From an uncultured cyanobacterium (GTDB lineage: Bacteria > Cyanobacteriota > Vampirovibrionia > Vampirovibrionales > JAGQHJ01): a stretch of 64,000 nucleotides of DNA. The notes beneath the pieces are model-generated. The model had not been told where the DNA came from, made no database searches, and was given only the letters and a program-made list of their open reading frames with translations. The position numbers and the translations under genes were made by a program. Shown one piece after another: positions 1-48,425 of the stretch (positions are counted from its first letter, which is position 1; each line of letters opens with the position of its first letter). The stretch spans positions 8,095 to 72,094 of the forward strand of contig CALAJO010000006.1 in NCBI GenBank assembly GCA_937922745.1, read 5' to 3'.

Positions 1-695
1 GGGATGGGGAAGTGGCCTTGTCCGATCAGCAGGAAGAAAAGCGGGGCCGGCGTCAGCGTATTACGGATGCCGATGCGCCGGATCTCCAGGGAATTGATAA
101 GCGGCTGCTGGAGCTGCTTCGCGGCCTGCGGCGCAACCTGGCCCGTGAGCGCAACGTCCCGCCCTATATCATCTTTAGCGATGTGACGTTGAGGGAAATG
201 GCAGCATATAAACCCCGCACGCTTTACGGATTCAGGAATATCCGAGGCATTGGGCAGCGCAAGCTGGAAGACCTGTGCCCGATGTTTCTTGAAGTGATCA
301 ATGACTACGAAGAGGCTGCGGGGAATCTTACAGGGCAAGTGGAACCGATCGAGCCGCCCTCCCGTTCCCAACGCCGGAGATCCTCCAAAATGGACACGAT
401 GGAAGAGGCATTTCGCATGTTTGCCGATGGCGCGTCGATAGAAGATGTCGTCTACCGCACGGGCCGCGCTGCAACAACGGTAACCAAGTACGCTTGTGAT
501 TACATTGCCGAGAATGGCATCGCCGAACCCGGTGAGTGGGTGGGGCCTTCCACGTTTGAGAGGGCTTGTGAGGCTTTTGAGGCCCTTGGCACGGAGCGGC
601 TTCGGCCAATATTTGATTACCTGGGCGGAGACGTCCATTACGATGAGATTGCGCTGTGCCGGGCGTTATATAAAAATCAAATAAGCCAGGCATAG
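1..695 (+). CDS. recQ: ATP-dependent DNA helicase RecQ, C-terminal part. Holds the HRDC domain plus an extra C-terminal domain. The gene starts upstream of the window; the frame is open from nt 3.
   Basis: Translation contains the HRDC-type motif PPYIIFSDVTLREMAAYKPRTLYGFRNIRGIGQRKLEDLCPMFLEVI, typical of the RecQ C-terminus. The reading frame stays open to the window edge. Confidence 0.7.
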   Translation, partial: DGEVALSDQQEEKRGRRQRITDADAPDLQGIDKRLLELLRGLRRNLARERNVPPYIIFSDVTLREMAAYKPRTLYGFRNIRGIGQRKLEDLCPMFLEVINDYEEAAGNLTGQVEPIEPPSRSQRRRSSKMDTMEEAFRMFADGASIEDVVYRTGRAATTVTKYACDYIAENGIAEPGEWVGPSTFERACEAFEALGTERLRPIFDYLGGDVHYDEIALCRALYKNQISQA

Positions 696-1832: not shown

Positions 1833-3758
1833 ATGCAGATCCGTCTCAATCCCGTGATGTTTCGTTCTCACATCCAAGGCACAGCACACACCAAAGCCAT
1901 AAGAGCCTCGTTCCCACCCTTGGGGGCAGACACCGTACACTTTGGACAAGGTGCGGATATATCAAGGGCTTTCCGCTATACTCCGGACGAGGAAAAAGTA
2001 ATCGCACTATTTCACCCCGGTCTCGGCTTACAGATTGGATCCATAGAACGAATACTTCCCTATCTCCCCAAAACAATTGCCGCCAAGGTTTGCCTGGAGC
2101 TTTTAAAGCCCGGTATGGCCGATGAGAAAGTAAAGGTTGCCCTAGCCGAGCATCTGGGCCAAGTTCGAGGCCAATACAATATCGATGGCATTATAAGAGT
2201 GATGACCGCTCCTGATCAGCCATTTGAAGTGCGGTTAAAAACGGCCAGCAAGGCTAATTTGATTCGGGATCCCGATTTTTATCTACAAACAGTCAGACTT
2301 TACTATGATTTGCAACCACAAAAAGTATGGTTTGGGCCTGAGGAAAGATCTGTATTCTTTGCAAGCAAGAGCCGTCCTCAATATGTCACGTTGGCGCAGA
2401 TGAGTGAGATCCTGGATTATCTTGTATATGATGAAAAGGTCCAGACTGCTGAAAAACATCAACTTGCAGCAGTGAAAGAAATTGCAGGTTTATTACCTGC
2501 ATACCCGGATAAGTTTTATCACTATGCTTCAGCATTAGCTGCTCATCCTGAAAAAAGCGTTCAACTTGCAGTTGTAAATGAATTATCCTGTTATAAATCT
2601 GCTGCTGAAGATGATCCTCAAAGCCTCCAAATGGTCGATGATCTGATTGTCTCACTCGCTACTTCTACAAGTGTTTCTAACGACGTACACGAAGCTGCGT
2701 TGCTGGAATTGGATAATCTTTCCAGCCAAGCCAGGTTGGAACAAGCACTTAGACAGATTACATCGGCCGAACCTAAGAACGTTATCTCTTCACTGGTTCG
2801 ATTTATACCGATGGTAAAACATAAAGGAACTCTCCAGCACCTTATTGGCCTGCTGGAGCCAGCCAAGCTAACTTCTGAAGCGGAGAGACACTATGCCAGC
2901 ATCGCTGTAACCATCCCCGATCGATCGCTCAGGCTAAAGGTTATCAGGCAATTGGCAAATAGTACAACGAAAGCAGCCTGTGATATTCTTGCAAATTCAA
3001 TCATCCACCGACGTGATGATCCTGACCAACCAGCAATGTTAGCCATTCTACAGGGTAAGGATGGTGCGGTATCGCCGCAGATGCAGCAATCTCTGGCAGC
3101 CAAGCTATCGCATCTCGCCCCAAACATACCCGACAGGCCTGCTCAAGGCCAATTCCTGGTGGTTATATTTAATAAATTACAGCAATCCCCCGCAGATATT
3201 GCAGCATTAGAAGCTGAGTTGCGTGAGTTACAGCTGAGTGTTCCGGAAGAAACAGAAACGGATCGTGACAGAGCTGTACAGCGGGGTTTTTTAAAGGACT
3301 TTGCATTGCGCAAGCTGCAAGAATTGGTGGAAAATAAAAGCTCAGATGATAAAGCTCGGGCCATTGCGGTAAAAACCATTCTATCTAACCTGGACACGCA
3401 ATACGACGATACGCGGGAGGTTTATTACGCTTTTGTAGAGCATTGCCTGAATGATCCCTCCCCCGAAGTTCGGAAACTCATCCCGGACAGCCTGAAAACA
3501 AAGCAGTTAAACGCAATCGATAGTCCACAATGCAAGCGGATCGTCACTCGTCTTCTAGCCGATAAGGCTGAGCCTGTTGCCCGGGAATCGTTGGACAAAC
3601 TCTGGCACTTCTTTCCTGAGGAGGAGCTGTTTGAGGCGGAATTGCACAGAATTTTTGTTAATGATCAAGAAATCCTACCTGTTATTAGGCAAAAAGCTTT
3701 TGGATGGTTAGTTCACCGTGTTTGGTCTCGAGAAAACAAACAAGCTAACTCGGTTTAG
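1833..3758 (+). CDS. HEAT/ARM-like repeat protein of unknown function, paralog A (641 aa); lower GC than its flanks
   Basis: Long uninterrupted ORF with repeated alpha-helical HEAT-like motifs such as DDTREVYYAFVEHCLNDPSPEVRKLIPDSL. Its N- and C-terminal ends resemble those of the downstream paralog. Confidence 0.6.
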   Translation: MQIRLNPVMFRSHIQGTAHTKAIRASFPPLGADTVHFGQGADISRAFRYTPDEEKVIALFHPGLGLQIGSIERILPYLPKTIAAKVCLELLKPGMADEKVKVALAEHLGQVRGQYNIDGIIRVMTAPDQPFEVRLKTASKANLIRDPDFYLQTVRLYYDLQPQKVWFGPEERSVFFASKSRPQYVTLAQMSEILDYLVYDEKVQTAEKHQLAAVKEIAGLLPAYPDKFYHYASALAAHPEKSVQLAVVNELSCYKSAAEDDPQSLQMVDDLIVSLATSTSVSNDVHEAALLELDNLSSQARLEQALRQITSAEPKNVISSLVRFIPMVKHKGTLQHLIGLLEPAKLTSEAERHYASIAVTIPDRSLRLKVIRQLANSTTKAACDILANSIIHRRDDPDQPAMLAILQGKDGAVSPQMQQSLAAKLSHLAPNIPDRPAQGQFLVVIFNKLQQSPADIAALEAELRELQLSVPEETETDRDRAVQRGFLKDFALRKLQELVENKSSDDKARAIAVKTILSNLDTQYDDTREVYYAFVEHCLNDPSPEVRKLIPDSLKTKQLNAIDSPQCKRIVTRLLADKAEPVARESLDKLWHFFPEEELFEAELHRIFVNDQEILPVIRQKAFGWLVHRVWSRENKQANSV

Positions 3759-4123: not shown

Positions 4124-6040
4124 ATGCAGATCCGTTTCAATCCGGCGGCGGTTGCTCGTTCTCACTTCCAAGGCGTGCATGCCAAAACCGTAAGGGCCTC
4201 GTTCCCACCCTTGGGATTAGATACCGTGCATTTTGGCCAAACAACTGCCGTAGAGCCACGACATCAAGTTCTGAATGAAGAAGAACAGATGATTTTTCAC
4301 TTTTATCATCAGCTGGATCAGGAACAAAAAGTCACCTTTATCTCGAAAAACCTTGCTTTGCTTCCTCCTGTGCTGCAAGTCGAGATCTGTAAAGGGATTA
4401 TCATTCCGGAAGCGCCTAAGGAGCTGAAGGTGGCCTTGGCAAAAAACTTGGATGATTTTCAACGAGGAACAATGCTAAATGGGCTTCTTCGGGCATTAAT
4501 TCAACCTCAACAACCGCGAGACGTTCGGTTGCATGCAGGTAAACAAGCTGCTGTATCAACCGATCCCGACCTGTTTGTCGCTGCGGCAAAAACATATTAT
4601 GATGTAGAATTTCGTTCCGATGCTAAGGTTTCCTTCTTTTCTCCCTACTATCGCCCTCAATCCGTTACGGTCGATCATATTCGCGAAGTCATTGACCATA
4701 TGATTTTTGGAAAACATTTGGGCAGTTATATCCAACAAAATCGAGTCTGGGCTGCCGAAGAATTGAATTATTTATTGTCGGAACAGCCTGATGAGTTCCT
4801 CCGTTATGGGCTGGAACTTATCTCAGATTCCAATTTTGAAGTCCAAGAGGCCGTTGCAAAGAAAATTGAATTTTGGGGCCACATTACCAAAGGGAATGAA
4901 ACGAGCCAAGAAGCTGTTAACACACTCATCCAAAACTTAGTGGATAATACGTTATCTCCTAAGCCTTCTGCCAAAGCCCGGGAAATTGCGCTACTCAATC
5001 TTAAATTTCTTAAGGATCCTGCGAAACGTGAAAACATAATTGGCAAACTAACCCCAACGGAGTCCGAAGCGGTTATGGTTTCAGTTGCAGACTTTATGCC
5101 AGAACTCAGCCGTCTTAGCACCCAGCAACATCTTGTTCAGCTTTTAACCAGAGATCACTATACGCGTAATGCGTTAATGAAAGTTGTCACGAAGATACCG
5201 GATAAGGAATTACGTTTACAAACCATTCGCATGCTGGCTAAATTATCTATTGATACCAAGCCTATGGTAGAAGCGATTGTCGCTGAACCGCACCATCCCG
5301 ATTATCAGTTATATCTCCAGATCCTTCAAACCACAGAGGGCGAGCATGCCGTTTATGTTCTTACTCAACGGGCTCTTGCAGAAGCTCTGGCTGAGGTAGC
5401 GGTAAATAAAAAGCCGCCCGAAGACGAAGAAGGTAAATGGCTATTGGCCATCATATCAACCGTGGGCCGCTCCGAAGCCGAGATTCACGCCATTGAGGAA
5501 CAATTGCGTGAATTAAGGGAAAGGGCAAGGCAAATTGCCGATACGGATGAGGCCCGTTATGAGCAAGTTAAAAAAGGCTTTATTCGGGATTATGCGATTA
5601 AGGTGCTGCAACAATTAATGAAAAACACCGCCGCTGATTCCATAGCACGCGTTACGGCAACTAAAGCCATTTTAAAGAACCTGGATGTGAAGTATGACGA
5701 TACACGTCAAGTTTACTTTGCCTTTTTGAGAACTTGTCTCGCGGATCAGTCACCTGATATTCGCAAGCTGATAGCGGAAGACTTGGTGAAAAAGAGGCTA
5801 AATGCAGAAGAAGAGCTACGCTGTTCTGAGATTGTCGATCGTCTTCTGGGTGACAGTAACGAACAGGTTGTGATGAGTACGCTGGACAATATTAATGCAC
5901 TTTACCCTACGGCCAAGACAAGACACCAAGTTTTGTGGCGAACCTTCCAAGATGAAAGCCTGAGTATAAACCTGCGGAGCAAGGCGCTTGAACTTCGTTC
6001 GAAAAGTATACATAAGGAATATCGACAAGTGGCCAGCTAA
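4124..6040 (+). CDS. HEAT/ARM-like repeat protein of unknown function, paralog B (638 aa)
   Basis: N-terminus MQIRFNPAAVARSHFQGVHAKTVRASFPPLGLDTVHFGQ and C-terminus YDDTRQVYFAFLRTCLADQSPDIRKLI parallel those of paralog A. The middle of the protein is diverged. Confidence 0.6.
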   Translation: MQIRFNPAAVARSHFQGVHAKTVRASFPPLGLDTVHFGQTTAVEPRHQVLNEEEQMIFHFYHQLDQEQKVTFISKNLALLPPVLQVEICKGIIIPEAPKELKVALAKNLDDFQRGTMLNGLLRALIQPQQPRDVRLHAGKQAAVSTDPDLFVAAAKTYYDVEFRSDAKVSFFSPYYRPQSVTVDHIREVIDHMIFGKHLGSYIQQNRVWAAEELNYLLSEQPDEFLRYGLELISDSNFEVQEAVAKKIEFWGHITKGNETSQEAVNTLIQNLVDNTLSPKPSAKAREIALLNLKFLKDPAKRENIIGKLTPTESEAVMVSVADFMPELSRLSTQQHLVQLLTRDHYTRNALMKVVTKIPDKELRLQTIRMLAKLSIDTKPMVEAIVAEPHHPDYQLYLQILQTTEGEHAVYVLTQRALAEALAEVAVNKKPPEDEEGKWLLAIISTVGRSEAEIHAIEEQLRELRERARQIADTDEARYEQVKKGFIRDYAIKVLQQLMKNTAADSIARVTATKAILKNLDVKYDDTRQVYFAFLRTCLADQSPDIRKLIAEDLVKKRLNAEEELRCSEIVDRLLGDSNEQVVMSTLDNINALYPTAKTRHQVLWRTFQDESLSINLRSKALELRSKSIHKEYRQVAS

Positions 6041-8002: not shown

Positions 8003-8668
8003 ATGAAGGAAGATAAACGCATTTTTAGCAAGATGGCAAACAAACCCAGGCAAGGCTTTTCCCTGGCAGAAATGCTGGTTTCCCTGGCGCTGATGGGCGC
8101 TTTGGCTTCCATGCTCCTGCCGATGCTGACCCATAACGTGGGTAAGGATAAGCTGATGTACATGGGCAAGGATGGAGCGGCTGAGCTGGTGCAGGCTTAT
8201 GCAACCTATCTTAAGACCAACGTGCCCACGGCCAATACCTCTGCACAGGATATTATTAACAACCTCAATTACATGCGCATCATTAACAATGGCTCGCAGA
8301 CCTTACAGGTAGAGAAAGTGAACAACACGCCTGCCTATGGCTCCTGTACCAGTGGCGGCAACCCATGCACCGTGTTTACTGCCGTTTGTCGTGCCGAAAC
8401 ACCTTGCGCGCTGCTGCATAGCGGCGCCCTCATTCAGTACGATGCGAATGCAACCTTTGGCGGCAATCCACCCCGATATAACACCAACGCCCTGCGCTTC
8501 ATCCTGGATCCGGACGCGGATGGGCCGCAAACATCCGTCTCGTTTGTCCTGTTTTATAGCGGCAGGCTTAGTACCCGACCTTATGCGCAAGCCGCAGTTT
8601 TAACGAATGACGACCTTGCCAATACAACCGTTGACCCGGAATACCTGATTGAATGGACAGACGGGTAG
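8003..8668 (+). CDS. Type IV pilin / pseudopilin with a prepilin-type N-terminal cleavage and methylation motif
   Basis: QGFSLAEMLVSLALMGALA matches the class III signal peptide (G|F..E, then a hydrophobic helix). An alternative ATG lies at 8033. Confidence 0.65.
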   Translation: MKEDKRIFSKMANKPRQGFSLAEMLVSLALMGALASMLLPMLTHNVGKDKLMYMGKDGAAELVQAYATYLKTNVPTANTSAQDIINNLNYMRIINNGSQTLQVEKVNNTPAYGSCTSGGNPCTVFTAVCRAETPCALLHSGALIQYDANATFGGNPPRYNTNALRFILDPDADGPQTSVSFVLFYSGRLSTRPYAQAAVLTNDDLANTTVDPEYLIEWTDG

Positions 8669-11346: not shown

Positions 11347-12189
11347 ATGTCTCGGCCCGTGATTGCAGTGATGACGGACTTTGGCCACCGCGACGGCTTT
11401 GTGGGCGTGATGAAAGGCGTCATCCTCTCACTTTGCCGGGATGTGACGTTGGTTGACGTTGCCAATGAAATACCGCCTCAAGATGTGCGGCACGCGGCCT
11501 GGGTCTTGAACCAGGCTTTCGGCCCTTTTCCTGAAGCGACCTGTTTTTTGTGCGTGGTGGATCCGCATGTTGGGAATCCGGAACAGAAAAAGCTGCTCAT
11601 TCATTTTCCGGCGGTTCGCAAAGCCATTGTTTGTCCGGATAATGGCCTAGCCAGTTGGGTTTTGCAAAAACATCCCGATGCAAGCGCTTACGCGATAGAG
11701 AATCCTTTGCTTTGCAGAAGTACCGCGGAGCCCAGCCAAACCTTCCATGGCAGGGATATTTACGCGCCGGTTGCCGCGCATTATATTAACGCATTAATAC
11801 AGAATCGGCTTCAGGGCTTTTTATCGTCCCTGGGAGAACCCCTGCCTCTCTCCCGGCTGGTTTTACTGGCGGCCGGCGAGCCCTGCCGCACCGAGTCCGG
11901 TCGGGTTATCGGCAGAATCGAAACGGCAGATATTTATGGGAACCTGATTACCAATATCCCCAACCGTTGGCTGGCGGGATTTGAAAAAAGGCATATTGTC
12001 GTTAATCAAAAACCATACACAGCCCAAAAGGTATCCCATTACTCGGCTATATCTGATGGATGCCATGAATCGATGCAACTCGGAATTGTCGCTGGCAGCC
12101 ACGGCTGCGCAGAGCTTTTTGTTAAAAATGGTTCGGCTGCCAAGGCCTTAAGCGTGCTGCCGGGTGCAATGGTTGAAATATGGCCATAA
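11347..12189 (+). CDS. SAM hydroxide adenosyltransferase (DUF62; fluorinase/chlorinase-like fold)
   Basis: N-terminal IAVMTDFGHRDGFVGVMKGV and mid-protein TFHGRDIYAPVAAHYINA correspond to the DUF62 family represented by SalL/FlA. Confidence 0.75.
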   Translation: MSRPVIAVMTDFGHRDGFVGVMKGVILSLCRDVTLVDVANEIPPQDVRHAAWVLNQAFGPFPEATCFLCVVDPHVGNPEQKKLLIHFPAVRKAIVCPDNGLASWVLQKHPDASAYAIENPLLCRSTAEPSQTFHGRDIYAPVAAHYINALIQNRLQGFLSSLGEPLPLSRLVLLAAGEPCRTESGRVIGRIETADIYGNLITNIPNRWLAGFEKRHIVVNQKPYTAQKVSHYSAISDGCHESMQLGIVAGSHGCAELFVKNGSAAKALSVLPGAMVEIWP

Positions 12190-12530
12190 AGGCCCTCCTC
12201 TATCCAGAGGAGAAAGGCGTGATTTAAATTAAGAAGATCTAAAGATTAGTTAAAAATTGTTTGAGCAAGAGATTTTGGAATGATGAATATCGGTTGAACG
12301 CATGATGGATATCGGAGATCAAAAAAGCCTTTTCTATCGGCACTTATACGGATGTGTAAAAAAAGGTGAATAAAAAAAGCCCTAATTCATGTAAAGAAAA
12401 AGCGGGTTTTATGACTGAAATCTTTATCTCACCGCTTCGTGTCACCATTGCACCATGTTCTGGAATCCGTTATAAACAATTACAAGCATTATCACTCCCT
12501 TAAATAAGATTCGGACGGAGACTTCAATAA

Positions 12531-12962
12531 ATGATGAGACAGGCGCCTTTCAGCCTAGAAGCATTAAAACTCAGACTCATCAGCAATGCTTCCAGCCCCT
12601 CTCAAGATCCGCTTTTAACCCAGGATGGGATTCACTATTTACTCAAAGCTTTGGCTTATGCAGACGCCGCCTTCTCTGAAGAGATTGAAAACGTGCTGGT
12701 CAAGGCAGGCAGCTTAGCCGTTCCCCAGTTAATCAAAAACCTGGTTTCCGATAACAATAACGTTCGCTCGGTTTCGGCAATGGCACTCATTCGCATTGGC
12801 CGTAACGCAGAAGATGCCCTTGTGAAAGGCTATGCCAAGTATGGCAAGAAAGCCTCCAACCGTTGGGTTTTCCAGTTTATCTTCCAGGAAATGGGAATGC
12901 AGCTCCCGGTTGCCCAGATGGTTTCCGATAACACGGTCGTTCCGCTGGAGCGCGTTGGGTAA
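12531..12962 (+). CDS. Small HEAT-repeat (PBS-lyase-like) protein
   Basis: Repeats such as NVRSVSAMALIRIGRNAEDALVKG. Confidence 0.45.
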   Translation: MMRQAPFSLEALKLRLISNASSPSQDPLLTQDGIHYLLKALAYADAAFSEEIENVLVKAGSLAVPQLIKNLVSDNNNVRSVSAMALIRIGRNAEDALVKGYAKYGKKASNRWVFQFIFQEMGMQLPVAQMVSDNTVVPLERVG

Positions 12963-13095
12963 GCAAAACCCACCGGCTTGCAAATTCTTTTCGTCTTGTG
13001 GCTGCCTGATTGGAAACCGAACCCATATTTCTCATCGTCAAGCCTGCCTGCATGCGATAAAATAATGCTGTCGCATTGAACCCTTCAGGAGTGTT

Positions 13096-13662
13096 ATGAA
13101 AAACAATCGCAACCTTGTTCTGATATTTGCCATATTGCTGGTCACGATTGCGGCTGTGTTCATTTTTAAGCCAAAGCCGGATGACAATGACCCGGTAAGA
13201 CCTGACTTGGTTGATGCGGCTAAAAGCGGCAAAGTGATGGTCTACTTTAATAAGGAACGGGGAAGCGAAGTTGTCACGGAGCCGGTTGTGCGATCCTTGC
13301 CGGAAGAACTGTCCAAGGACAGCAAGGAAGTAATGTCCTATGCCCTGTTGGAACTGTTAAACGGCCCCAAGGACAATGAGAAGGATGAAGGCTTTTTCAC
13401 GGAAATCCCGGAAGGAACCCGCCTGCTCTCTGTAACGGAGACGCCCAAAGCAATGTATATCGACCTATCTGGCGCGTATACGACCGGCGGCGGCTCCAAC
13501 AGCATGATTCAACGGTTAAACCAGGTTACTAAAACCGTGGTGTCCGTGCCGCAGAAGAAACCGGTTTACCTGAAGGTTGAGGGGAAACAGCTTGATGTAC
13601 TCGGCGGTGAAGGAATAATGGTGAATGAACCCATCACAAGCGACCCCAGCGTCTCACAGTAA
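13096..13662 (+). CDS. GerMN-domain (sporulation/germination-associated) protein with an N-terminal membrane anchor
   Basis: TM helix LVLIFAILLVTIAAVF followed by the GerMN-like core LLELLNGP...GTRLLSV. Confidence 0.55.
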   Translation: MKNNRNLVLIFAILLVTIAAVFIFKPKPDDNDPVRPDLVDAAKSGKVMVYFNKERGSEVVTEPVVRSLPEELSKDSKEVMSYALLELLNGPKDNEKDEGFFTEIPEGTRLLSVTETPKAMYIDLSGAYTTGGGSNSMIQRLNQVTKTVVSVPQKKPVYLKVEGKQLDVLGGEGIMVNEPITSDPSVSQ

Positions 13663-14032
13663 ATCCGGGATTGTATTCCTGGTTCACGGAACACGAAACA
13701 AGGCAGCCCAGCCAGTGATAATGGAATCCCTTGAGCGGTTGCGGCTTCGCTTTGCCGAATCGCTCCAGCTCCCGCAAGAAGCGGTGATTTTTGGCTTTCT
13801 GGAAATTATGCCACCCCTGCTGGATGAAGCGCTGGAAACGCTTTGTCAGATGGGAAAGACGGAGATCCGAATACTCCCCCTGTTGTTGTTCCCAGGCGGA
13901 CATCTCAATGAGGATATTCCCAACATTTCCCGGCAGGTGATGGAAAAATATCCTGGTGTCCGTATCAATACCGGCAACTGTATCGGGGTAGACGAGCCCG
14001 AGTTTATGGATATCCTGATGAAGCGCCTTTAA
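13625..14032 (+). CDS. cbiX: Sirohydrochlorin chelatase, small CbiX-type
   Basis: GIVFLVHGTRN ... LLFPGGHLNEDIP, typical of CbiX(S). Overlaps the preceding gene by 38 nt. Confidence 0.6.
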   Translation: MNPSQATPASHSKSGIVFLVHGTRNKAAQPVIMESLERLRLRFAESLQLPQEAVIFGFLEIMPPLLDEALETLCQMGKTEIRILPLLLFPGGHLNEDIPNISRQVMEKYPGVRINTGNCIGVDEPEFMDILMKRL

Positions 14033-14122
14033 AGCCACGCTTTACTTATCTTTACGGATATTTTCATCCTCAACCGACTTGGCTATAATCATTGCCAATA
14101 CTTTTAGTGGGAGTTTGGGGTT

Positions 14123-14848
14123 GTGGTATCGATAGTCCGTTTTGGCTATTTGCCTTTGCTCATTCCGAAAAAACCTTTGTTTAGTGGCCAAGCCTATAAT
14201 CGCGAAGTCTTATTGGATGCGTTTGCCTCACGTCGAACCCCTCCTTTTTGTGCATATTGCGGTAATAATTTTGATAAGAAACAATCTGTCACTTTTGATC
14301 ATGCACGTCCTGACATGAGAGGAGGACGCGATGAGCCAGCCAATGGTATTTTGGCTTGTCAGCCATGTAATCATCGGCGGAGCAATTTCTCGCTACTATA
14401 TTTCCTGCAAGGCACATTATCCCACGATGATTATCTACGGCCTGATGCCATTGAGGGTAACACGCCACTCAGTGGCATCCAGCAGAATGCAAAAAAGGTA
14501 AAAAGGCGTATTTACAGTTTTTCTCGATACTTGCGATTTTTTGTGGAGAACCAAATTCGCATCAATCCAATAACGGGCTCAACATGGTTTAACCAGGCTA
14601 TCGATAACCTTTTATTTCCTATTTTACTTCCCCGCGAAGAGAAGCAGGAGAAATACATAGCTTTTGACCGGTATAAAACACGGTTTAAGGCATTGGTGAG
14701 GTTGCTTACGCCAACTTCGCCAGAATTTTGGCTGGGCCGCAAATTTCAGGGTATCATCAGTGCGGATTTTAACCAGCAGCCTCTTAAAAAAAATGCCTTT
14801 ATCAAGGCATTACAGGAATTGAGGATGGAATATCAGTTTAATCAGTAA
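14123..14848 (+). CDS. Stand-alone HNH endonuclease; low-GC gene
   Basis: HNH motif CAYCGNNFDKKQSVTFDHARPDMRGGRDEPANGILACQPCNHRRSN. GC is visibly below that of the flanks. Confidence 0.6.
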   Translation: MVSIVRFGYLPLLIPKKPLFSGQAYNREVLLDAFASRRTPPFCAYCGNNFDKKQSVTFDHARPDMRGGRDEPANGILACQPCNHRRSNFSLLYFLQGTLSHDDYLRPDAIEGNTPLSGIQQNAKKVKRRIYSFSRYLRFFVENQIRINPITGSTWFNQAIDNLLFPILLPREEKQEKYIAFDRYKTRFKALVRLLTPTSPEFWLGRKFQGIISADFNQQPLKKNAFIKALQELRMEYQFNQ

Positions 14849-14974
14849 AATTGAGGGTCCACTGGCATAGTTAAGAATTGATACAGCTTTCCAAAATCCG
14901 CTAATCTACATATTGTTTATTCCTGGAATGCTATAGTAAACTACCCATAGAGTAACGGCATAGGACGATAGGCA

Positions 14975-15481
14975 GTGCCTGTAACTGCACTTTACCCGGG
15001 AAGTTTCGATCCGGTGACCTTGGGTCACGTGGATGTTGTAACCCGTGCCAGCCGGATGTTCGACAGGATTATTATGGCAGTGGTCGCAAACCCGCAAAAG
15101 GATAGTCTTTTTGATATCCCCCACCGGATGCGCCTGGTGGAAGATTCAGTCGGGCATTTAAGCAATGTTTCTGTCGAGTCCTTTGAAGGGCTGACGGTGG
15201 AGTTTGCCCGAAAACACCGGGCCAATGTCATTATTCGCGGCCTTCGCGCCATTTCCGACTTTGAGTTTGAATTCCAGATGTCCCAAATGAACAAGACATT
15301 GTATCCTGAATTGGAAACGGTTTTCGTGATGGCGAAACTGGACTATACGTTCCTCTCCTCAAGTATGGTAAAAGAAGTGGTTAAGCTTGGAGGCAACGTG
15401 TCATCCCTGGTTCCGCAACCGGTACAAAAAGCTTTAAGTCAAGTTAGCAGTAACCTAAAGAAAGGGGAGATGCGCCATTAA
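14975..15481 (+). CDS. coaD: Phosphopantetheine adenylyltransferase
   Basis: LYPGSFDPVTLGHVDVV ... IIRGLRAISDFEFEFQM, the canonical CoaD sequence. Confidence 0.9.
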   Translation: MPVTALYPGSFDPVTLGHVDVVTRASRMFDRIIMAVVANPQKDSLFDIPHRMRLVEDSVGHLSNVSVESFEGLTVEFARKHRANVIIRGLRAISDFEFEFQMSQMNKTLYPELETVFVMAKLDYTFLSSSMVKEVVKLGGNVSSLVPQPVQKALSQVSSNLKKGEMRH

Positions 15482-15521
15482 TACGCTATATAAATTACTC
15501 GACAGGCTCGAAAGCGTCATC

Positions 15522-16121
15522 ATGGACGGAATCCCTATTCCGTTCCTTCCGTATTCCCTGGTAAACCAGGAAAAACTGATCATGTTGCTGGACAAGATCC
15601 AGACGGCCATACCGGATGAGATCCAGCAGGCCGATCAGATCCTGGGTCGGAAAGAGGAAATTCAACTGGAATCCCAGCGGCGCGCCCAGCAGATGTTACA
15701 AGAGGCCAAGCAGCAGGCTGAGATCATGCTGAGTGAGTCTGAGTTGCTGAAGGCCGTCCAAGGAGAAGCGGAGCGGATTCGCCAGCAAGTGATGACCGAG
15801 TTGCAGGCATTGCGCCAACAAACCATCGAAGAAACCGAGTCCATGCGCAATAACGCATACGAAGAAGCACGACTGGTGCGCGAAAGCGCGGATGAATATG
15901 CCGATATGGTCCTGAAGACGCTTGGCCGTAACCTTGAGGAATTCCAGGTGGTTGCAAAGAATGCGCAAAAGCAGCTTAAACGGGCCCGCGCAGAATCCTT
16001 GCAAACCCAGCATCCGCAAGCCGCAATTGCTTCAGGCAGTTTTGCAACCGGCAAAACCAAGGAGCATGCCAAGTCGCACCGTGTGGATCGCGTTTCCGAG
16101 AATCAGGAAATCGGTGTATAA
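15522..16121 (+). CDS. Coiled-coil protein, resembling the ATPase b/E or FliH families
   Basis: Q/E/A/R-rich heptad-like sequence throughout. Confidence 0.45.
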   Translation: MDGIPIPFLPYSLVNQEKLIMLLDKIQTAIPDEIQQADQILGRKEEIQLESQRRAQQMLQEAKQQAEIMLSESELLKAVQGEAERIRQQVMTELQALRQQTIEETESMRNNAYEEARLVRESADEYADMVLKTLGRNLEEFQVVAKNAQKQLKRARAESLQTQHPQAAIASGSFATGKTKEHAKSHRVDRVSENQEIGV

Positions 16122-16160
16122 GGTCGGTACTCCAAGTTCAACCATAAACCTGCAAACCTT

Positions 16161-16197
16161 AAAACCTCTTATCTTTTTGGATAAGAGGTTTTTTATG
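16161..16197 (+). terminator. Rho-independent terminator
   Basis: Hairpin aacctcttatc / gataagaggtt followed by ttttat. Confidence 0.5.
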
Positions 16198-16214
16198 TCC
16201 GGAAGTCTGAAGCG

Positions 16215-16406
16215 TTACGCGGAGGCGCGCTTTTGGGCAATGTTTTGCTGGACGTACAGCGCTGCCTTTGCAAAGGCTGCCAAGGTATCCATTGCACCTT
16301 TTAACATCTCCGGGTCTTCGCGATAACTGGCCTGCAAGCTGGCGGCATTCTGAAGGTCGTGCAAATACCGGCTTGCAACATACTGTTCAAGGCTAGGTTG
16401 GCTCAA
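16215..16406 (-). CDS. Small 63 aa protein of unknown function (TTG start)
   Basis: GGAGGAG lies 9 nt upstream of the TTG, with an AT-rich promoter-like region further upstream. Confidence 0.35.
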   Translation of the reverse strand: MSQPSLEQYVASRYLHDLQNAASLQASYREDPEMLKGAMDTLAAFAKAALYVQQNIAQKRASA

Positions 16407-17433
16407 TTAACCTGCTCCTCCAAGTCGAAATGACAATTTACTGCCTTACATATATAAAAAAACAATTTCTTCGCCAAAGTTGCCTTTTCCCCTCTGTTTC
16501 ATTAAGAAGTATGTGTGCCTTCCCTTCCTGCGAGGGCACCAGGATGCTCCGCAAATTAAGCGCGATAGGAAGCAAATGCCAATTGAAAACCAGCTTAAAA
16601 GACAGATTACCAGGTTACCTGATTTACAATATTTCTTTTTTACAAATCTGTAACACCTGTTGAATGTGCGGCATTTATAAGTAGAATATATACAATAACT
16701 TAAATGAACAATTTTGCGAGGGAAGGAGATAGTTTAGCCGGTAGGGTTTGTTAAAGCCTTGCATTTAGCGCATTCGCCGGAATGGGGTAGGTCATTTACT
16801 TGACATTGGTACCCTCCCAGCTAGATGCGGTTCAATCAAGACGAAGCAATAAGCTCTTATCGCTTGATAACTTCTTCCCTCTTTTCCTTAAGTTTACCTA
16901 CAGAACATGCTGAGTCCGAGCATCGCATTGAGTCGATGTTTCGGGCTTTTTTTTATAAAGGCTTGCGCAAATAACTAAAACTTAAACACAGCCTGATAAA
17001 ATTTCTTGCAAACAAGTTCATAGGGTTGAGATGGCCGAAAAATCACATCCGACACGGCTTGGTAAGGATTTGCCCCCTATCCTCTAGGATATACACTTGA
17101 AAACTACTGACTGTTCGGAAGTTTCGCCCGAGAATGACAAAAACCAGCCGTAGTCGGTCACACGTTGAGGGTTTCATTCGTGGAAAGAACCACGGTCTGC
17201 CAATGGCGAAGCCATTTCAACCTAAAAAACGAGACAAAGCGGCTGCACCCCTTGCGGCTTGGCTTCGTCTGTAATCATTTAAAACAACTCTTTGTACTCA
17301 CTCGCTTCCGCCATTCTAGCGAAGGCACGAATCGGGCTCAACGGGTAAATTTGCGGATTTACAAAATGTTACGCCGGGCAATTTCCGGCGGTTGCAGGGT
17401 TTAGTTCATGCAGAGTGGAACGAGGGACGTGAG

Positions 17434-20084
17434 ATGAATCGCAGGCTATATCTGTGCAGTTCGCCGTATCAGGCGTTTCAGGCGGTTTGCGGGACGGATG
17501 TCGGTAGTGATTGCGTTGTCGTAACACCGGGGGCGAAGGCCGCTCGGGCAATCGGTTTTCCGCATCGTTCGCTGGTGCAGTTTGCGCGCAAAACCCTGGA
17601 AAGCAAGGCGTAGGGGTGGCTTCCGCTTTGGTGGCACATCGCCTGCTGCGAGAGGCCATTGTGGAGAACGGTTTCTACTCGGACGTGGAGGGCGCTGCAA
17701 CGGTTATAGCGGCCGTAATTAAGGAGCTGCTTCGGGTCGCTCCTGAGAGGGATAGTCTGTGCGCCCATCCCAATACGCGCATCAGCACCTTGGCGAATAT
17801 TTCACGGCTGTACCGTGAGAAACTTCGTGGTCAAAACTGGGTTGATGCTGCGGAGATCTACAACGAAGCGTGCAAGGCTGCCGTTGAGCGTCAGACGATG
17901 CTGGTTTACGGATATATTGGGTTTTCACCGGATGAGGCTGCATTTCTCGATGCTTTGGCGGGCGAGGGAAGTTTGCTGGTTCTGCCGTATAAACTTCACG
18001 ATGGCGTTCTCAGCCATCGGGAGGTGGTGGAAATGCTTGAAACCAACGGCTGGCAAGTTGAAATTCACGAAGAAAAGCCGCTTTCCCTCGGAGAGAAGGC
18101 GGCTTCTGCCTTTTCTGCGGGTGCGCCCTTGCCGCTGGAAGTTAAAGCCGTTGTGTATCCGCATCAGGAGGCGGAGGTGCGGGGCGTTTTGCGCGAGGTC
18201 AAGCAGTTGCTTCTCCAGGGCGTACCTTCGGACGAGGTGGTACTAGTGGCGCGGGATGAGGCGCTGTACGGCCCTGTCGTCCTTTCCGTGGGCTGGGAAT
18301 ATGACTTGCCGGTTAGAGTGCTTTATGATGTGCCGCTCTTAGAAACGGCGTTTGGCGCCTGGTTCAATCTTCTTCTGGAAGTGGTTCGGGACGGGATGCC
18401 GTATGAAACGACGTTGCAGTTGCTGTCTCACCCGTTTGCCGAAGCCTTGAGCGACTGGCAATATCAGCAGGCAAGGAAGACGCATCCCAATTCCCCGTTG
18501 GACTGGGAGCGGTTGGGCGTGACGGCCTCTCTGTTTGGTTGGCCGGAGCAGGACAAGGGCGGCGCGTGGATCAAGCGGATCCAATCGGTCTTCAAGTCTT
18601 TTGATTTTCCCGGCCGCCTGGCGCATCGTCCAAGGGATTTGGCGGCGTATCAGGCTCTCCTGCAACACTTGCCCTGGCTGGAAAACACTTTTTCTAAGCC
18701 CGTATCGCTTCCTGTGTTGCTGGATGAGCTGAACGATATGTTGCGTATCCTGTCCGTGCCGGCACAACCTGGCAGGGGTGGGGTGGAGCTGCGCACGCCA
18801 AAGGATTTGACGGGCGCCCGATACCCGTATGTCTTTGTGCTGGGGATGGCGGATGGTGTGCTTCCCGCCTCGATTCCCGAGGATACGAGCCTGGATTTTG
18901 CGGATCGGGCGGAATTGATGGTAATGGAAGGGCTTCCGCTGAAGGGAATTGCACAAGCGGCCGGTGAGGAGAGGCTGGCGTTTGACGCCCTGCTCCAGAT
19001 AGCAACTAAAGCCATTACCCTCTCGTATCCTAAGCTCATCCGCAGCAGGGGGATGCTGCCCAGTCCGTACATCCAGGAATTGGGCCTGCTGCCTTCGCGG
19101 CCGGGCGACAGTGCGTTTGGCAGCCTGGAGGAAGCCCGGTGCGTGTGGCTGCCGTTGGCTGATGCCGGGGATGATCCGTTGCTGCCTGAAATTCGACGGG
19201 CATATGCGGTGGAAAGTAGCCGTGAAAGTGCTGAATCATTTGATATGTATGACGGCATCCCGGGAATTCCCATTGATGTGTCCGCACGAATCTTTTCGGT
19301 CTCGCAGTTAACGCGCTTTGGCCAGTGTCCGTTCCGGTGGTTTGCCGGGGATGTGTTGAAACTGGCGGAGCCGGACGAGGCGGAGACGGATTTGAGCGCG
19401 TTGCAGCGCGGCAACCTGTATCACAAAGTCCTGGAGTGGCTAGCGGAAAGGACGCTGACAGAAGCCTCTCCCAGGGAGGCGATGCTGAGCCTGCTGGAAG
19501 ACGTGTTTGCCGAGGCGGAGGCCCTGCTGGGCGTGGAGTCGGTACAGGCCTGGCCGGTACGCCGGGCGGAGCATATCGCCCGGCTGAGGAGAGTGCTTCA
19601 ATCACCGGGATTTTTGCCGGAAGGCCACCGTATCCGTGTCCAGGAGCTGTCGTTTGAGAGTGAGTGGTATGGGCTGCCCTTAAAGGGAAAGATAGACAGG
19701 GTGGATGAAACGCCGGAGGGCTTGGTATTTATAGACTACAAGACCAGCGGTTCCAAACCCCTTGGCGTGCAAGACGAAAAAAGGGAATTGAAGCTGGATA
19801 TTCAGTTGCCGATTTATGTACAGGCCGCCTCGGTTGGATTGTTCCCCGGCGAGGCGGTGAAAGGGGCATATTACTTCTCTGTGACCAAGGGCCTTGTGCT
19901 AAATGAAGCCGTGCCGGGAGAAAACCGGGAACTGGCGAAATTTGCCGAATCGTTCAAGGCGCGCCTGGCTCAGGGATGCTTTCCAATCCAGCCGGACAAG
20001 GAGCGGAAAGCTTGCGAATATTGCGACATGGATCTGGTGTGCCGCCAGGGAGCCCGTTTAAACCGGAAGGAGGAAACCGCATGA
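17434..20084 (+). CDS. addB: AddB/RexB-type helicase-nuclease subunit (PD-(D/E)XK nuclease with C-terminal Cys cluster). The N-terminus is disrupted by an apparent frameshift near 17600-17615.
   Basis: The 73 aa ORF (MNRRLYLCSSPYQAF...) continues in the +2 frame into the 857 aa ORF. The C-terminus holds a nuclease motif (IDRVDETPEGLVFIDYKTS) and Cys residues (CPFRW ... CEYCDMDLVC). Confidence 0.65.
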
Positions 20085-23000
20085 CCCTGACGCAGGCGCA
20101 ACAGCAAGCTGCTTATACGCTCGCCAGCGTGGCGGTGACTGCCGGGGCCGGCACCGGCAAGACCCATATGCTGTCTGAGCGATACCGGTTTCATATCGCG
20201 GAGCAGGGGTTAAGACCGCTACAGATTGTGGCGGTGACGTTTACGGAAAAGGCGGTGGCTGAACTGAAAGCCCGCATCCGATCCAACCTGCTGGGGCAGA
20301 TGCCGGGACAGGCTACCCTAATGGCTGAGTTGGAGGCGGCCCCTATCTGCACATTTCATGCCCTTTGCGCACGAATTTGCCGGGAGCATCCCCAAGAAGC
20401 CCAGGTCCCGCCCGATTTCGAGATCCTTGATGACCTGGAAAGCCAGGTTTGGTGGGCCGAGCAGTTAAACCGGGCGATGGATAAGCTTCCCCCGGAAATT
20501 TATGAGAAAATCCCTTTTACCCGGCTTCACGATGCGTTAAGCAGGTTTCTGGCGGATCCGCTGACCGCGCGGCAAGCCTTGGCGCATGGATCGGAAAGCT
20601 GGCCGGCCATCATCTCTTTGGAGCGCCAACTGGCGGAGACGCGCCTGCTGAAGAGCCGTGCGTGGCTTGATGCCCTTATTGCGGTGACGGAGTATGCCGG
20701 GCAGCCGGAGGACGCCCTGGAGCAAAATCGGCAGACCGCGCTGGCTGCAATGACCGCTATTGAAGAAGGTAAGGAGATAACACCTTATCTGGACGCCATT
20801 TCGGGTTTGTCTTTTCGGGGCGGGAGCGTTAAAAATTGGCCGGGCGGTGGATTTGATATCGTCAAAGCGGCGTTAAAGGCGCTTCGCGACAAGGTTAAAG
20901 AAGCCCAGAGAAAAGGCTTGATTAACCTGGCGCTGGGCCCGGTGGATGAGGCGCTGGCTTCCTGCCTGCCATTGCTGAAGGAGGCCTTTGAGGCCGTTGA
21001 CACGATGATTGGCGAGGCAAAGCGGGAGAAGCGGATGCTGGATTATGCCGACCTGGAAGTCCATGCCCTGCGTGCGCTGGAGAACCCCGCTGTTTGCGAT
21101 TATTATGCCCGGCGCTGGAAAGCCTTTTTGATTGATGAATTCCAGGACACCAACCGGGTTCAGGCCGAATTGTTGTCCCGGTTGTGCGGCCAGGCCATCG
21201 TCACCATTGTGGGAGATGAAAAACAGTCGATTTACGGCTTTCGACGCGCCGATTTGCGTTGCTTCCAGTCCTTCCGGGAGCGTATCGCGGAGGCTGGCGG
21301 AGAAGCGGTCTCGATTGCCCTAAGTTTTCGCACCCATCGGCAGTTGGTAGAGGCGATGAACAGCACTTTCCAGCCCTTATTAGGATCCCTCTTCTCTCCG
21401 CTGGAGGCAGCGCGCCGGGAAACGCCGCATGCGGGCCCCCACTTGCGGGCTTATGTGCTGGAAGCCGACACGTCAACACGCCGCGCCGAGCGCTTGCAGG
21501 CGGAAGCCCGGATGATAGCCGGCCTGGTGGATGGGATGCTGACAAGCGAGCTACCGGTCTTCGACAAGCAGTTGGGCAGCCTGCGCCCTATTCGTCCCGG
21601 GGATATCGGGATTCTTTCGCGCACCTGGCAACCGCTGGATTGCTATGTGGACGCCCTCCAGACCCGTGGCGTCCCGGCCATGCATGCCGGTGGAGGCAGC
21701 CTGCTGGATACGCGGGAGGCCAAGGACGGCGTTGCCCTTGTTCGCTTCCTGGCGGATGCGTCGGATAATCTGGCGCTGGCGGCCCTGTTACGTAGCCCGT
21801 TTTTTGCCGTGAGCGACCAAGCGCTTCAGCGCTTTGCTGCGGGACTGCCTAGGGGAACATCCTGGTGGGCCTGCCTGCGACAAATGGAAACCGTCCCGCC
21901 TGAACTCCAACGGGCCAAGGCGGTTTTATCCGAAATGCTGGCCTTGCGGGCTGTACACCCTCCTTCGCGTCTGCTGCAATGGATGGATCGTTTGACCGGC
22001 TACACCGCGGTTATTGCGAATTTGCCTAACGGCTTGCGGCGGGAAGCTGACTGGCGCGGCTTTTGCGATCTGATAGGCATGCTGGAGACCGGGGCGGCCG
22101 ATCTGTTCTCCGTGATGCGACGGCTCAGGCAACTAATGGCGCAGACGGTGGAGATTCCCCGCTTGCCGATGGAGCCGGATAACGCCGTTTCCCTGATGAC
22201 CATCCATGCGGCCAAGGGGCTGGAATGGCCAATCGTTATCGTGCCGGATTTAACGCGGCGATCCGCTCCCGACAACCAGCCGTTGCGCCTGCATCCCGAG
22301 CTGGGCGTGGGTCTCAAGTTGTCGATGGATGAGGATGACGAGACGCTGCAAAAGCCCGCGATTTACAGCATCCTGGAGTGTCGCCATCGGGAGGAGCGGC
22401 ACGACGAGTTGAAACGCCTGCTTTATGTGGCCCTGACCCGCGCTCGCGATCAAGTGATCCTGACTGCGCCGGATGAAAAAGGCGAAGCGTTGGAGCTGCT
22501 TCGGGACGGTCTGGCGGCTGCCGATGTCCCGATTGAGGTGGTGACGCTGCAATCGCTGGATGCACAGGATGACGGGAAAGTCCCTGCGCGTCAGGATGCG
22601 ATTGCCGCCACGCTCCTTCAAGGCACGGCTTCCAGCGGATTGACCGAGTTGCCCGTAACGGCCATTACAGAGTTTGCCACTTGCCCCCAGCGGTTCCGCT
22701 TTGCCTACATTGATGGACATCCCGGGCTTCAGTCCCTCGTCGGCGAATCGGCTTTTGCCGCCCGCGTTGGTTCCCTGGTGCATCAGGCGCTGGAACTTGA
22801 CTTGCGGGAGCTGAAGGCGCTACGTGCGCTCGATCCCGACCTGCCTTTGGGAGCGGTCAAGGAAGCCCTGCAGTTAATCGAGGATTTCGATACATGTGAA
22901 GCGTTTGCCCCGTTCAGAAAGCCCTATTTCCAGCGTGAAGTCCCCATCAGCCTGGATATCGCTGCGGCAGGGCAGAAACTCTATCTTAACGGCGTTATCG

Positions 23001-23293
23001 ATTTGATGGGCGACGATTTTGTGCTGGATTACAAGTCCGATCGGGAGATGGCGCCGGAACACCATCGCTTACAGCTTTGGGCTTATGCCCGCGCCACAGG
23101 TCGCAAGCAGGCCCATATTGCCTATATCCGCCATGGGCAGGTGCATACCTTTAGCCCGTCGGATTTATCTGCTGCGGAATCGGAGGCAACCGCGATTGCA
23201 TGCAGCATCTTGTCCGGTCAGTTTCAGCCCGCGCCGGATGCCAGGCATTGCAGCTTCTGCCCGTACCACGCCATTTGCGAGGATAAAGCATAG
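20081..23293 (+). CDS. addA: AddA/RecB-type UvrD-family helicase with C-terminal PD-(D/E)XK nuclease
   Basis: Walker A AGAGTGKTHML with UvrD motifs, a C-terminal nuclease (IDLMGDDFVLDYKSD) and a Cys motif (CSFCPYHAIC). The ATG overlaps the addB stop in an ATGA arrangement. Confidence 0.8.
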   Translation: MTLTQAQQQAAYTLASVAVTAGAGTGKTHMLSERYRFHIAEQGLRPLQIVAVTFTEKAVAELKARIRSNLLGQMPGQATLMAELEAAPICTFHALCARICREHPQEAQVPPDFEILDDLESQVWWAEQLNRAMDKLPPEIYEKIPFTRLHDALSRFLADPLTARQALAHGSESWPAIISLERQLAETRLLKSRAWLDALIAVTEYAGQPEDALEQNRQTALAAMTAIEEGKEITPYLDAISGLSFRGGSVKNWPGGGFDIVKAALKALRDKVKEAQRKGLINLALGPVDEALASCLPLLKEAFEAVDTMIGEAKREKRMLDYADLEVHALRALENPAVCDYYARRWKAFLIDEFQDTNRVQAELLSRLCGQAIVTIVGDEKQSIYGFRRADLRCFQSFRERIAEAGGEAVSIALSFRTHRQLVEAMNSTFQPLLGSLFSPLEAARRETPHAGPHLRAYVLEADTSTRRAERLQAEARMIAGLVDGMLTSELPVFDKQLGSLRPIRPGDIGILSRTWQPLDCYVDALQTRGVPAMHAGGGSLLDTREAKDGVALVRFLADASDNLALAALLRSPFFAVSDQALQRFAAGLPRGTSWWACLRQMETVPPELQRAKAVLSEMLALRAVHPPSRLLQWMDRLTGYTAVIANLPNGLRREADWRGFCDLIGMLETGAADLFSVMRRLRQLMAQTVEIPRLPMEPDNAVSLMTIHAAKGLEWPIVIVPDLTRRSAPDNQPLRLHPELGVGLKLSMDEDDETLQKPAIYSILECRHREERHDELKRLLYVALTRARDQVILTAPDEKGEALELLRDGLAAADVPIEVVTLQSLDAQDDGKVPARQDAIAATLLQGTASSGLTELPVTAITEFATCPQRFRFAYIDGHPGLQSLVGESAFAARVGSLVHQALELDLRELKALRALDPDLPLGAVKEALQLIEDFDTCEAFAPFRKPYFQREVPISLDIAAAGQKLYLNGVIDLMGDDFVLDYKSDREMAPEHHRLQLWAYARATGRKQAHIAYIRHGQVHTFSPSDLSAAESEATAIACSILSGQFQPAPDARHCSFCPYHAICEDKA

Positions 23294-40995: not shown

Positions 40996-41472
40996 ATGCT
41001 GCGTAAAACCAAACGGTCTACACCCAAACAATCCGGCCAGGCTGCCATCGAACTCGTCATGTCCCTACTGCTATTTGTGATGATGGTTGGGACGCTTTTG
41101 AGTTTAAGCCTGTATATGTATGTCCATCATTCGTTCCTTACCGCGGCGAAGGAAGGCGCCAGGGCCGCCGCCGTGGAGGCCAGCCTGGCGAACGCAGGCA
41201 CTCGCCAAACCGGCGTTAATAATGTTGCCGATACCGTGGTTGATTTTGTTTCCGGCAGCACCGGGATTACGCTGAACCGGAATAGCAACGTTACTGTTAC
41301 CGGGCCAACGGGCGCCACTGTAGGAGACAGAACGGTGACTGTAACCGTTAACTATGCCTTTGACAATCCCATCCAGATTCGGACATTTATGAATCGTTTA
41401 TCCGGAGGATCCGCTGAGGACCTGGATAAACTTACCATAAGTCATACGGCAACCATGCGATATGAGGAGTAG
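40996..41472 (+). CDS. tadE: TadE-like pseudopilin
   Basis: GQAAIELVMSLLLFVMMVG, a TadE-type N-terminus. Confidence 0.7.
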   Translation: MLRKTKRSTPKQSGQAAIELVMSLLLFVMMVGTLLSLSLYMYVHHSFLTAAKEGARAAAVEASLANAGTRQTGVNNVADTVVDFVSGSTGITLNRNSNVTVTGPTGATVGDRTVTVTVNYAFDNPIQIRTFMNRLSGGSAEDLDKLTISHTATMRYEE

Positions 41473-41480
41473 AGTCACTT

Positions 41481-42545
41481 ATGAGTATGAAACCCGCCGC
41501 AGGCGGCCCCAGGCTGCGTCGCCTGAATATGGGGCAAATTTTTATTCTGCTGGCCGTTGTCAGTTTCGTCATCACCATCTTCGTTTTCAAAAGCATGATG
41601 GGTGGCAAACAGGAAGTGAAGGCCGAGAAGGTTGAAACCAGACCATTGGTCGTGGCCGCCCACCAGTTGTTTAGCGGCGAGGTCATTACCCCCGATAGCC
41701 TAAAGGAAATCGAGTGGCCGGTTGAGCATTACCCAAAAAGCAATGTGTACGACAGTGCCGATAAAGTGGTCGGTCGCGTCGTCAAGTCCAACATCTACGC
41801 CGGGCAACCCATTTACCAGCCCAGCCTTGCCGGTGGCGAATCCGACGGCGGCATGCCGGTCGTTATCCCACCGGGCCATCGCGCCATGACGATTCTCGTG
41901 ACCGAGAACAAGGGCGTTGGCGGTTTCGTGAAACCCGGCAACCGTGTGGATATTATTGGAACCTTCAAAATCGAGATTTCCGAAGCCAGCCAGGAAGCAT
42001 TGGCCAAGAAAAACGGCCCGCTGCTGGAAGAAAGCATTGACGTAACCCAAACCATTCTCCAAAACGTGCAGGTTCTGGCCATTGCGCAGGAAATGTACGA
42101 AAAGAAATCGGACATTGAAGCGGGCTTGCAAGGCGATCCGGAGAAGAAGAAGGAAGCCGGCAACAAAAAAGATGCCGACCCGGAAGTGACCAAGGCCAAG
42201 GTGGTTTCCTCCGTAACCCTGGCGGTGACCCCGGAGCAAGCCGAAAAACTGGCCTTCGCCGATACCAAGGGCGACCTGAGACTGGCCCTTCGTCCGGAGA
42301 ACGAGGATGAAGAAAAGCAACTGCTTGGCGCCTTCAGTGCGGATGTGGTTCCTCTGCAAAATATCTTCGAAAAGGTGAACCAGATTGCCAGCGGCTTTGA
42401 CCCCGGTATGTTCAACGATCCCCCGCCAATACCGGAGCCGGTCGGCAAGCAGATGGCGTCTGCCCCGCCCCTTATGCCGGATCCCTCGCCGGGACGAACG
42501 GTTGAAGTGATTGAGGGCGTCAGTAAAAGCTCCGTCGGATTCTAA
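41481..42545 (+). CDS. cpaB: Flp pilus assembly protein CpaB/RcpC (SAF domain)
   Basis: N-terminal TM helix, an SAF-like region (AAHQLFSGEVIT) and the RcpC family core (GHRAMTI ... PGNRVDII). Confidence 0.8.
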   Translation: MSMKPAAGGPRLRRLNMGQIFILLAVVSFVITIFVFKSMMGGKQEVKAEKVETRPLVVAAHQLFSGEVITPDSLKEIEWPVEHYPKSNVYDSADKVVGRVVKSNIYAGQPIYQPSLAGGESDGGMPVVIPPGHRAMTILVTENKGVGGFVKPGNRVDIIGTFKIEISEASQEALAKKNGPLLEESIDVTQTILQNVQVLAIAQEMYEKKSDIEAGLQGDPEKKKEAGNKKDADPEVTKAKVVSSVTLAVTPEQAEKLAFADTKGDLRLALRPENEDEEKQLLGAFSADVVPLQNIFEKVNQIASGFDPGMFNDPPPIPEPVGKQMASAPPLMPDPSPGRTVEVIEGVSKSSVGF

Positions 42546-42553
42546 ACCATCTA

Positions 42554-42588
42554 AGAGAGGTCTCGCAAGAGACCTCTCTTTTCGTTTA
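42554..42588 (+). terminator. Rho-independent terminator after cpaB
   Basis: agagaggtctc-gcaa-gagacctctct followed by tttcgttt. Confidence 0.6.
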
Positions 42589-42596
42589 AAGCCGTT

Positions 42597-45461: not shown

Positions 45462-45510
45462 GACGGGCATCCTGGAGATAACTGAACCCGGATTGAACCG
45501 ATATATCCCC

Positions 45511-48395: not shown

Positions 48396-48425
48396 AGCAC
48401 ACCAGTTGGAGGCGGCGTTTCTGCT

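Follow-up and report, generated by a model that had tools for sequence, protein, structure and literature searches.

Why should a gene whose product aligns from end to end with its relatives be read in two frames? The question is raised by an addB-like gene in a stretch of 64,000 nucleotides (hereafter the window) from an uncultured cyanobacterium of the Vampirovibrionia (NCBI GenBank assembly GCA_937922745.1, contig CALAJO010000006.1, positions 8,095 to 72,094 of the forward strand). AddAB-type helicase-nucleases process double-strand breaks for recombination. An original prediction, made from the letters of the window, had placed a frameshift in the N-terminal part of this gene and had offered a pseudogenising mutation, programmed frameshifting or a sequencing error as its cause. 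The frameshift is borne out, as both frames are colinear with orthologs and abut one another, and a genuine, recent single-base deletion that disrupted the gene is probably its best explanation.

Frame 1 of the forward strand is open from TTG 17392, contains ATG 17434, encodes the peptide MNRRLYLCSSPYQAFQAVCGTDVGSDCVVVTPGAKAARAIGFPHRSLVQFARKTLESKA and stops at TAG 17611–17613. The N-terminal fragment of the addB-like gene identified in this frame by ortholog alignment and a hidden Markov model (HMM) occupies positions 17434–17613 (MNRRLYLCSS...ARKTLESKA, 59 codons and the premature TAG). The peptide that had been predicted, MNRRLYLCSSPYQAF...KTLESKA, does end at this TAG; its stated length of 73 codons applies when counting begins at TTG 17392, but the quoted peptide begins at ATG 17434 and has 59. 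Frame 3 of the same strand stays open over 17511–20084, overlaps the frame-1 open reading frame (ORF) and encodes the rest of the AddB-like protein, reading KQGVGVASALVAHRLLREAI... from about 17601 and ending in ...ACEYCDMDLVCRQGARLNRKEETA. The predicted ORF of 857 amino acids (aa) is correct as a count from TTG 17511 but not as a protein, since this TTG lies inside the frame overlap and is no real start; the figure includes 30 overlap codons that are homologous to nothing. The remainder of the gene (17601–20084) carries superfamily 1 (SF1)-helicase-like domains, a PD-(D/E)XK nuclease domain and four Fe-S cysteines, as identified with PF12705, the HMM and Foldseek. The window belongs to a contig of 105,416 bp recorded in NCBI and ENA. 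In the deposited annotation the addB-like product begins at GTG 17616 and has 822 aa (P0108; recorded in NCBI and ENA), and the Logan gene caller, which placed the start at the equivalent of GTG 17661, also left the frames unjoined. ATG 17434 aligns with Met1 of the orthologs and follows, at a distance of 5 nt, a Shine-Dalgarno (SD)-like GAGGGA (17423–17428, forward strand). Its anti-SD duplex energy of −6.4 kcal/mol is typical of genes in the window (median −5.9 kcal/mol over 25 genes; random mean −2.8).

The search with the repaired protein, that is with the missing base restored, recovered about 93 full-length orthologs of 860–910 aa, the best of which is 45% identical and which, where the source is named, are mostly cyanobacterial. 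Their N-termini (MKRTLYLNS...VITPTPQAARAL.VPHQSLE.LA...L...G..VAP.L.AHR.L) match frame 1 residue by residue to ...ARKTLESK and then frame 3 from GVGVASALVAHRLL, and the frame-1 peptide aligns with residues 1–58 of about 30 orthologs. We built an HMM from 74 intact orthologs, leaving out the window sequence, and searched it against the 1,758 six-frame ORFs of the window. Only two ORFs matched: the long frame-3 ORF at profile positions 51–874 (E = 2e-301) and the small frame-1 ORF at positions 1–52 (E = 9e-5), the latter beginning exactly at ATG 17434. Frame-3 homology to the orthologs starts at about 17601–17607. Since the two matches meet at profile positions 51/52 without a gap, one base is missing within 17599–17610 on the forward strand, equivalent to a −1 frame change relative to intact orthologs. 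This is where the ortholog alignment that the original prediction had suggested also puts the break. We enumerated all single-base repairs in this interval, and every one yields a protein of 883 aa. The simplest are AAA (17600–17602) to AAAA, giving ...TLEKQGVGV in agreement with the profile consensus 'kq', and GG (17607–17608) to GGG, giving ...TLESKGVGV; the missing base probably came from one of these short A or G runs. The frame change was mapped through family matches, since a self-trained codon-usage frame plot separated the frames too poorly to locate the shift or to bring out other frameshifts. That the small ORF might be spurious and a downstream internal Met the true start, an outcome for which the original prediction had allowed, is ruled out by the ortholog alignment and the HMM: the orthologs have a homologous N-terminus of about 58 residues that is colinear with the small ORF.

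Judged by its sequence and modelled fold, the interrupted gene is an AddB-like gene of a cyanobacterial subgroup lacking the Walker A motif. PF12705 (PD-(D/E)XK nuclease) matches residues 621–871 of the repaired protein over the whole profile (2–247 of 247, E = 2e-37). Residues C632, C861, C864 and C870 are invariant in a 36-sequence alignment that includes the window protein, which reads ...ACEYCDMDLVC... at this place. In Bacillus subtilis AddB an Fe-S cluster is bound by four cysteines that flank the nuclease domain, one on its N-terminal and three on its C-terminal side, and this feature defines the family. The family profile found 3U44_B (B. subtilis AddB) as its best match among PDB sequences (E = 8e-20), and the AlphaFold model of the repaired protein (mean predicted local distance difference test score 86.7) retrieved with Foldseek five AddB chains at the top (E about 1e-30, the best about 4e-31), followed by AdnA and RecC; both searches thus place the SF1-helicase-like N-terminal and central domains in the AddB fold. 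The Walker A motif GxxGxGK[ST] is absent from residues 1–60 of the window protein and of its orthologs, and we therefore call the gene AddB-like.

The protein resembles B. subtilis AddB (RexB; PDB 3U44, 3U4Q and 4CEH, chain B) in its C-terminal RecB-type PD-(D/E)XK nuclease domain, in the four invariant cysteines (1 + CxxCx5C) flanking that domain and in an adjoining, translationally coupled addA that encodes a UvrD-type helicase with a nuclease of its own. It differs from B. subtilis AddB in length (about 880 versus 1166 aa), in an identity of only about 15%, in an N-terminal strand that reads LYLCSSPYQAF (similarly in the orthologs) rather than the GxxGxGKT of the Bacillus protein, and in the interruption of its gene by a frameshift after about codon 58. 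Cyanobacterial proteins annotated as 'PD-(D/E)XK nuclease family protein' or 'ATP-dependent helicase/DNAse subunit B', such as those of Cyanomargarita calcarea (P0006) and Stanieria cyanosphaera (Sta7437_3530, P0036), are colinear with the repaired protein from end to end at 35–45% identity. They share the addB-addA pair with its 4-nt overlap, as seen in one ortholog locus, but are encoded by single ORFs of 860–910 codons and come from photosynthetic cyanobacteria, whereas the window copy is frameshifted and belongs to a Vampirovibrionia genome. The deposited 822-aa product P0108 sits in a '90% identity' protein cluster whose 56-aa representative, P0109, is unrelated to it (P0110 is similar), which looks like a clustering artefact and hid P0108 from the homolog search.

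Profile-guided locus searches yielded 159 orthologous loci, 80 from species-representative genomes and 79 from metagenomes, none above about 48% identity. The addB-like gene is one ORF from the N-terminus in 73 of the 80 genome loci. In five of the other seven the N-terminus diverges slightly or is truncated by the contig; of the remaining two, L028 consists of a single ORF with a spurious short second match and L053 contains in-frame stops. Of the 79 metagenome loci, 56 have an uninterrupted ORF from the N-terminus onward and 13 run into the end of a contig; in about 10 the gene is disrupted, at scattered positions, by stops, frameshifts or a deletion. The frame change at the window junction is shared by none of the 159 loci. 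Exact-pattern scans that permitted either allele found no match in genome contigs or metagenome contigs, and neither the two repaired 883-aa proteins nor the 59-aa and 73-aa peptides had an exact match in a collection of 15 billion proteins. In the closest metagenome-assembled genome (MAG) found via RpoD (GCA_041697335.1, L087) synteny is lost before addB. As for individual broken copies, the gene of a Pleurocapsa MAG (L053:3727–3801, on the same contig as L105) has two in-frame stops (EEVRGVLTQV*IL*TQGV), and a 214-kb Oculatellaceae contig has one (L088:3000–3004). Further broken addB-like orthologs are L120, L138, L150, L163 and L165, and several metagenome contigs carry frameshifts.

The break is also present in an independently built assembly. 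In the Logan assembly of run ERR9287890, a contig of 7,784 bp (L082), which was reached via the upstream gene, the 822-aa product itself having no match in the contig index, corresponds to window positions 11685–19468 at 100% identity with 0 gaps and covers every base of 17380–17700, the frameshift site included. Logan contigs L081 and L083 likewise agree with the window at 100% identity, which brings the identical total to 13.3 kb. About 24 neighbouring genes with a family match are all single ORFs without split pieces, among them holA, holB, coaD, galK, galE, rpoD, cpaB, the secretin, T2SSE and T2SSF genes and those for UDP-galactopyranose mutase, an SBP_bac_5 protein, an SSF transporter and an MFS transporter; where whole-protein models exist (holA, coaD, galK, galE, cpaB) they match essentially end to end. 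The contig is therefore not generally ridden with indels. Because the independent assembly is identical at the site and the neighbouring genes are unsplit, an assembler artefact is unlikely, the sequence can be taken as good, and the deletion as the allele that predominates among the read k-mers.

We consider a genuine deletion the probable cause of the two-frame layout. One base would have been lost within 17599–17610 relative to every intact ortholog, and the loss would be carried by the dominant genotype of the sequenced sample. Ribosomes starting at the ancestral ATG 17434 would read 58–59 correct codons and halt at the TAG; the other 822 codons would lie in the −1 frame, and full-length AddB could not be made by standard decoding. 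Several points weigh against this account. A long intact downstream ORF is equally expected if it is still translated and under selection. Relatives are distant, the best orthologs being 45–48% identical, and the ancestral sequence of the site is not directly readable. The evidence is at the level of assemblies, the reads and platform of ERR9287890 lying outside it (a full-text literature search for this run found no paper), and both assemblies probably derive from the same reads, in which case a systematic read error would show in both. Such an error, carried as a read artefact into both consensus sequences while the organism has an intact 883-codon addB, fits the short homopolymers (AAA, GG) in which the missing base can be placed, a typical context for indel errors, as well as the otherwise perfect preservation of the gene and the frequency of broken family copies in low-coverage metagenome contigs (about 10 of 79). 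It is nonetheless unlikely: the homopolymers at the site are just 2–3 nt long, no other gene across the 64 kb has a comparable break, and the agreement of two assembly pipelines over 7.8 kb here implies accurate reads and majority support for the allele. Of the three causes first proposed, a pseudogenising mutation is thus the one we retain.

Two further accounts would leave the organism with a working enzyme. Programmed recoding, by −1 ribosomal frameshifting or transcriptional slippage that yields some full-length AddB, draws support from geometry alone, the frames overlapping as in dnaX and IS3-family transposase genes with the downstream one at −1. Unlike those genes the locus has no slippery heptamer, stimulatory structure or conserved two-frame arrangement. 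Between 17434 and 17612 just one X XXY YYZ heptamer occurs, AAACCCT at 17591, and its phase is wrong for frame 1; the 120 nt of 17596–17715 fold at −45.8 kcal/mol, compared with −43.3 ± 3.7 for shuffled sequences (z = −0.66). Transcriptional slippage calls for a run of at least 6–9 A or T at the site; the longest such runs between 17434 and 17700 have 4 nt (AAAA at 17590, TTTT at 17556), and the junction itself has only AAA. With no signal of either kind and none of the 159 orthologous loci sharing the arrangement, programmed frameshifting and slippage are not supported; as far as sequence analysis reaches they are excluded, and we regard recoding as highly improbable. A somewhat greater, though still small, probability goes to a real mutation that left a functional split gene. 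Here re-initiation at GTG 17616, TTG 17628 or GTG 17631 would give an AddB of 817–822 aa without the first approximately 60 residues, working alone or with the 59-aa peptide, and the downstream ORF would be kept under selection. An SD-like AGGGGUGG does overlap the premature stop, 7–10 nt upstream of the in-frame TTG 17628 and GTG 17631 (candidate re-initiation sites; the whole element spans 17612–17633, forward strand), and its duplex energy of −6.6 kcal/mol is typical of a gene; in the structural model the break lies at a helix end and loop (residues 57–60), where chain breaks are best tolerated, and the 822 codons downstream remain conserved and free of stops. Against this, no ortholog is organised as a split gene, AGGGGUGG is simply made up of the ancestral V-G-V-A codons, GTG 17616 has an SD score of −3.3 kcal/mol, near the random mean, the segment missing from a re-initiated product supplies two core strands of its domain, and a young lesion would leave the downstream ORF just as intact. 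The more specific version, in which termination-reinitiation at AGGGGUGG produces a 59-residue micro-protein and a chain of about 818–822 residues that together rebuild the first RecA-like domain, so that AddAB stays active, is slightly more doubtful again; if true, it would explain the pristine state of the downstream 822 codons.

If the deletion is genuine, the lesion is evolutionarily young, because neither the addB fragments nor the coupled addA has decayed. Of the 168 columns with a conservation of 90% or more the repaired protein retains 154 (92%), which lies inside the span of 81–99% seen in intact orthologs, and the near-invariant residues of the first 58 positions (T31, A37, L47, A51) are all present. 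In the AlphaFold model, residues 1–58 form the beta1-alpha-beta2-alpha-alpha part of the first RecA-like domain (strand 3–7, helix 11–19, strand 28–30, helix 34–39, helix 47–57), and the break falls at the end of helix 47–57 and in the loop 58–60. AddB function is most likely lost or severely impaired, because a re-initiated product would be without two core beta-strands of this domain.

The main value of these results is for annotation. Calling the frameshifted gene from GTG 17616 has left the deposited 822-aa protein without its N-terminus; the addB-like entry should carry a note that the gene is disrupted, or be repaired if reads contradict the consensus. Should the mutation be genuine, a Vampirovibrionia population has recently lost, or is losing, an AddAB-type enzyme for double-strand-break processing. 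A recent loss is consistent with the approximately 10% of metagenomic family copies that are broken at various positions, and the AddB-like family may be dispensable in these lineages. The lesion is of an ordinary kind and implies no new mechanism.

Upstream of the addB-like gene, about 1.3 kb (16122–17433), A+T-rich by eye, separates its start from the gene ending at 16121. This interval has no convincing ORF and weak coding potential, and a hairpin with a T-run follows just after 16121, at about 16160–16197. An E-value scan of 16100–17640 against Rfam gave one sub-threshold chance match and no family above threshold, and a promoter and terminator scan turned up no more than shuffled sequence did. 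Downstream lies an intact addA-like gene of 1070 aa (20081–23293, forward strand) that encodes, by domain matches, a UvrD-type helicase with a C-terminal PD-(D/E)XK nuclease (UvrD-helicase, UvrD_C, PDDEXK_1). Its start, ATG 20081, overlaps the addB stop (ATGA) and is preceded by a strong SD, GGAAGGAGG (−12.3 kcal/mol); the exact product is on record in NCBI, ENA and Logan. A second recombination/repair helicase gene, recQ, is situated about 17 kb from addAB: positions 12–695 (forward strand) match only the C-terminal approximately 75 residues of RecQ (profile positions 516–591 of 591), and the gene therefore extends past the left end of the window.

The nearest match to the RpoD of the window is 83% identical; RpoD of Vampirovibrio chlorellavorus is 80% identical, and the other named matches are from Vampirovibrionales or Melainabacteria. 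The gene content fits a non-photosynthetic diderm (Tad pilus operon, secretin, galactose metabolism genes). The Tad/Flp-type pilus operon (40996–50340, forward strand) comprises cpaB, a secretin, a CpaE/MinD-like ATPase, a T2SSE ATPase and two T2SSF genes, and a ComGE-like pilin ORF is found at 8003–8668. Tandem paralogs of about 640 aa each (1833–3758 and 4124–6040, forward strand) share 34% identity over their full length (E = 5e-105) and show no more than a weak HEAT-repeat match. Their third-position GC is 0.42, where most of the other long ORFs have 0.6–0.78, and both genes may be of horizontal origin. An HNH-domain protein (14123–14848, forward strand) has a weak, sub-threshold match to the HNH region of IscB, an RNA-guided endonuclease (E = 5e-7, 29 bits versus a cutoff of 175). 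A thiamine pyrophosphate (TPP) riboswitch (RF00059; 55496–55610, forward strand; 71.5 bits, E = 4e-12) overlaps the nominal TTG start of the ORF at 55560–56162, which therefore probably starts further downstream.

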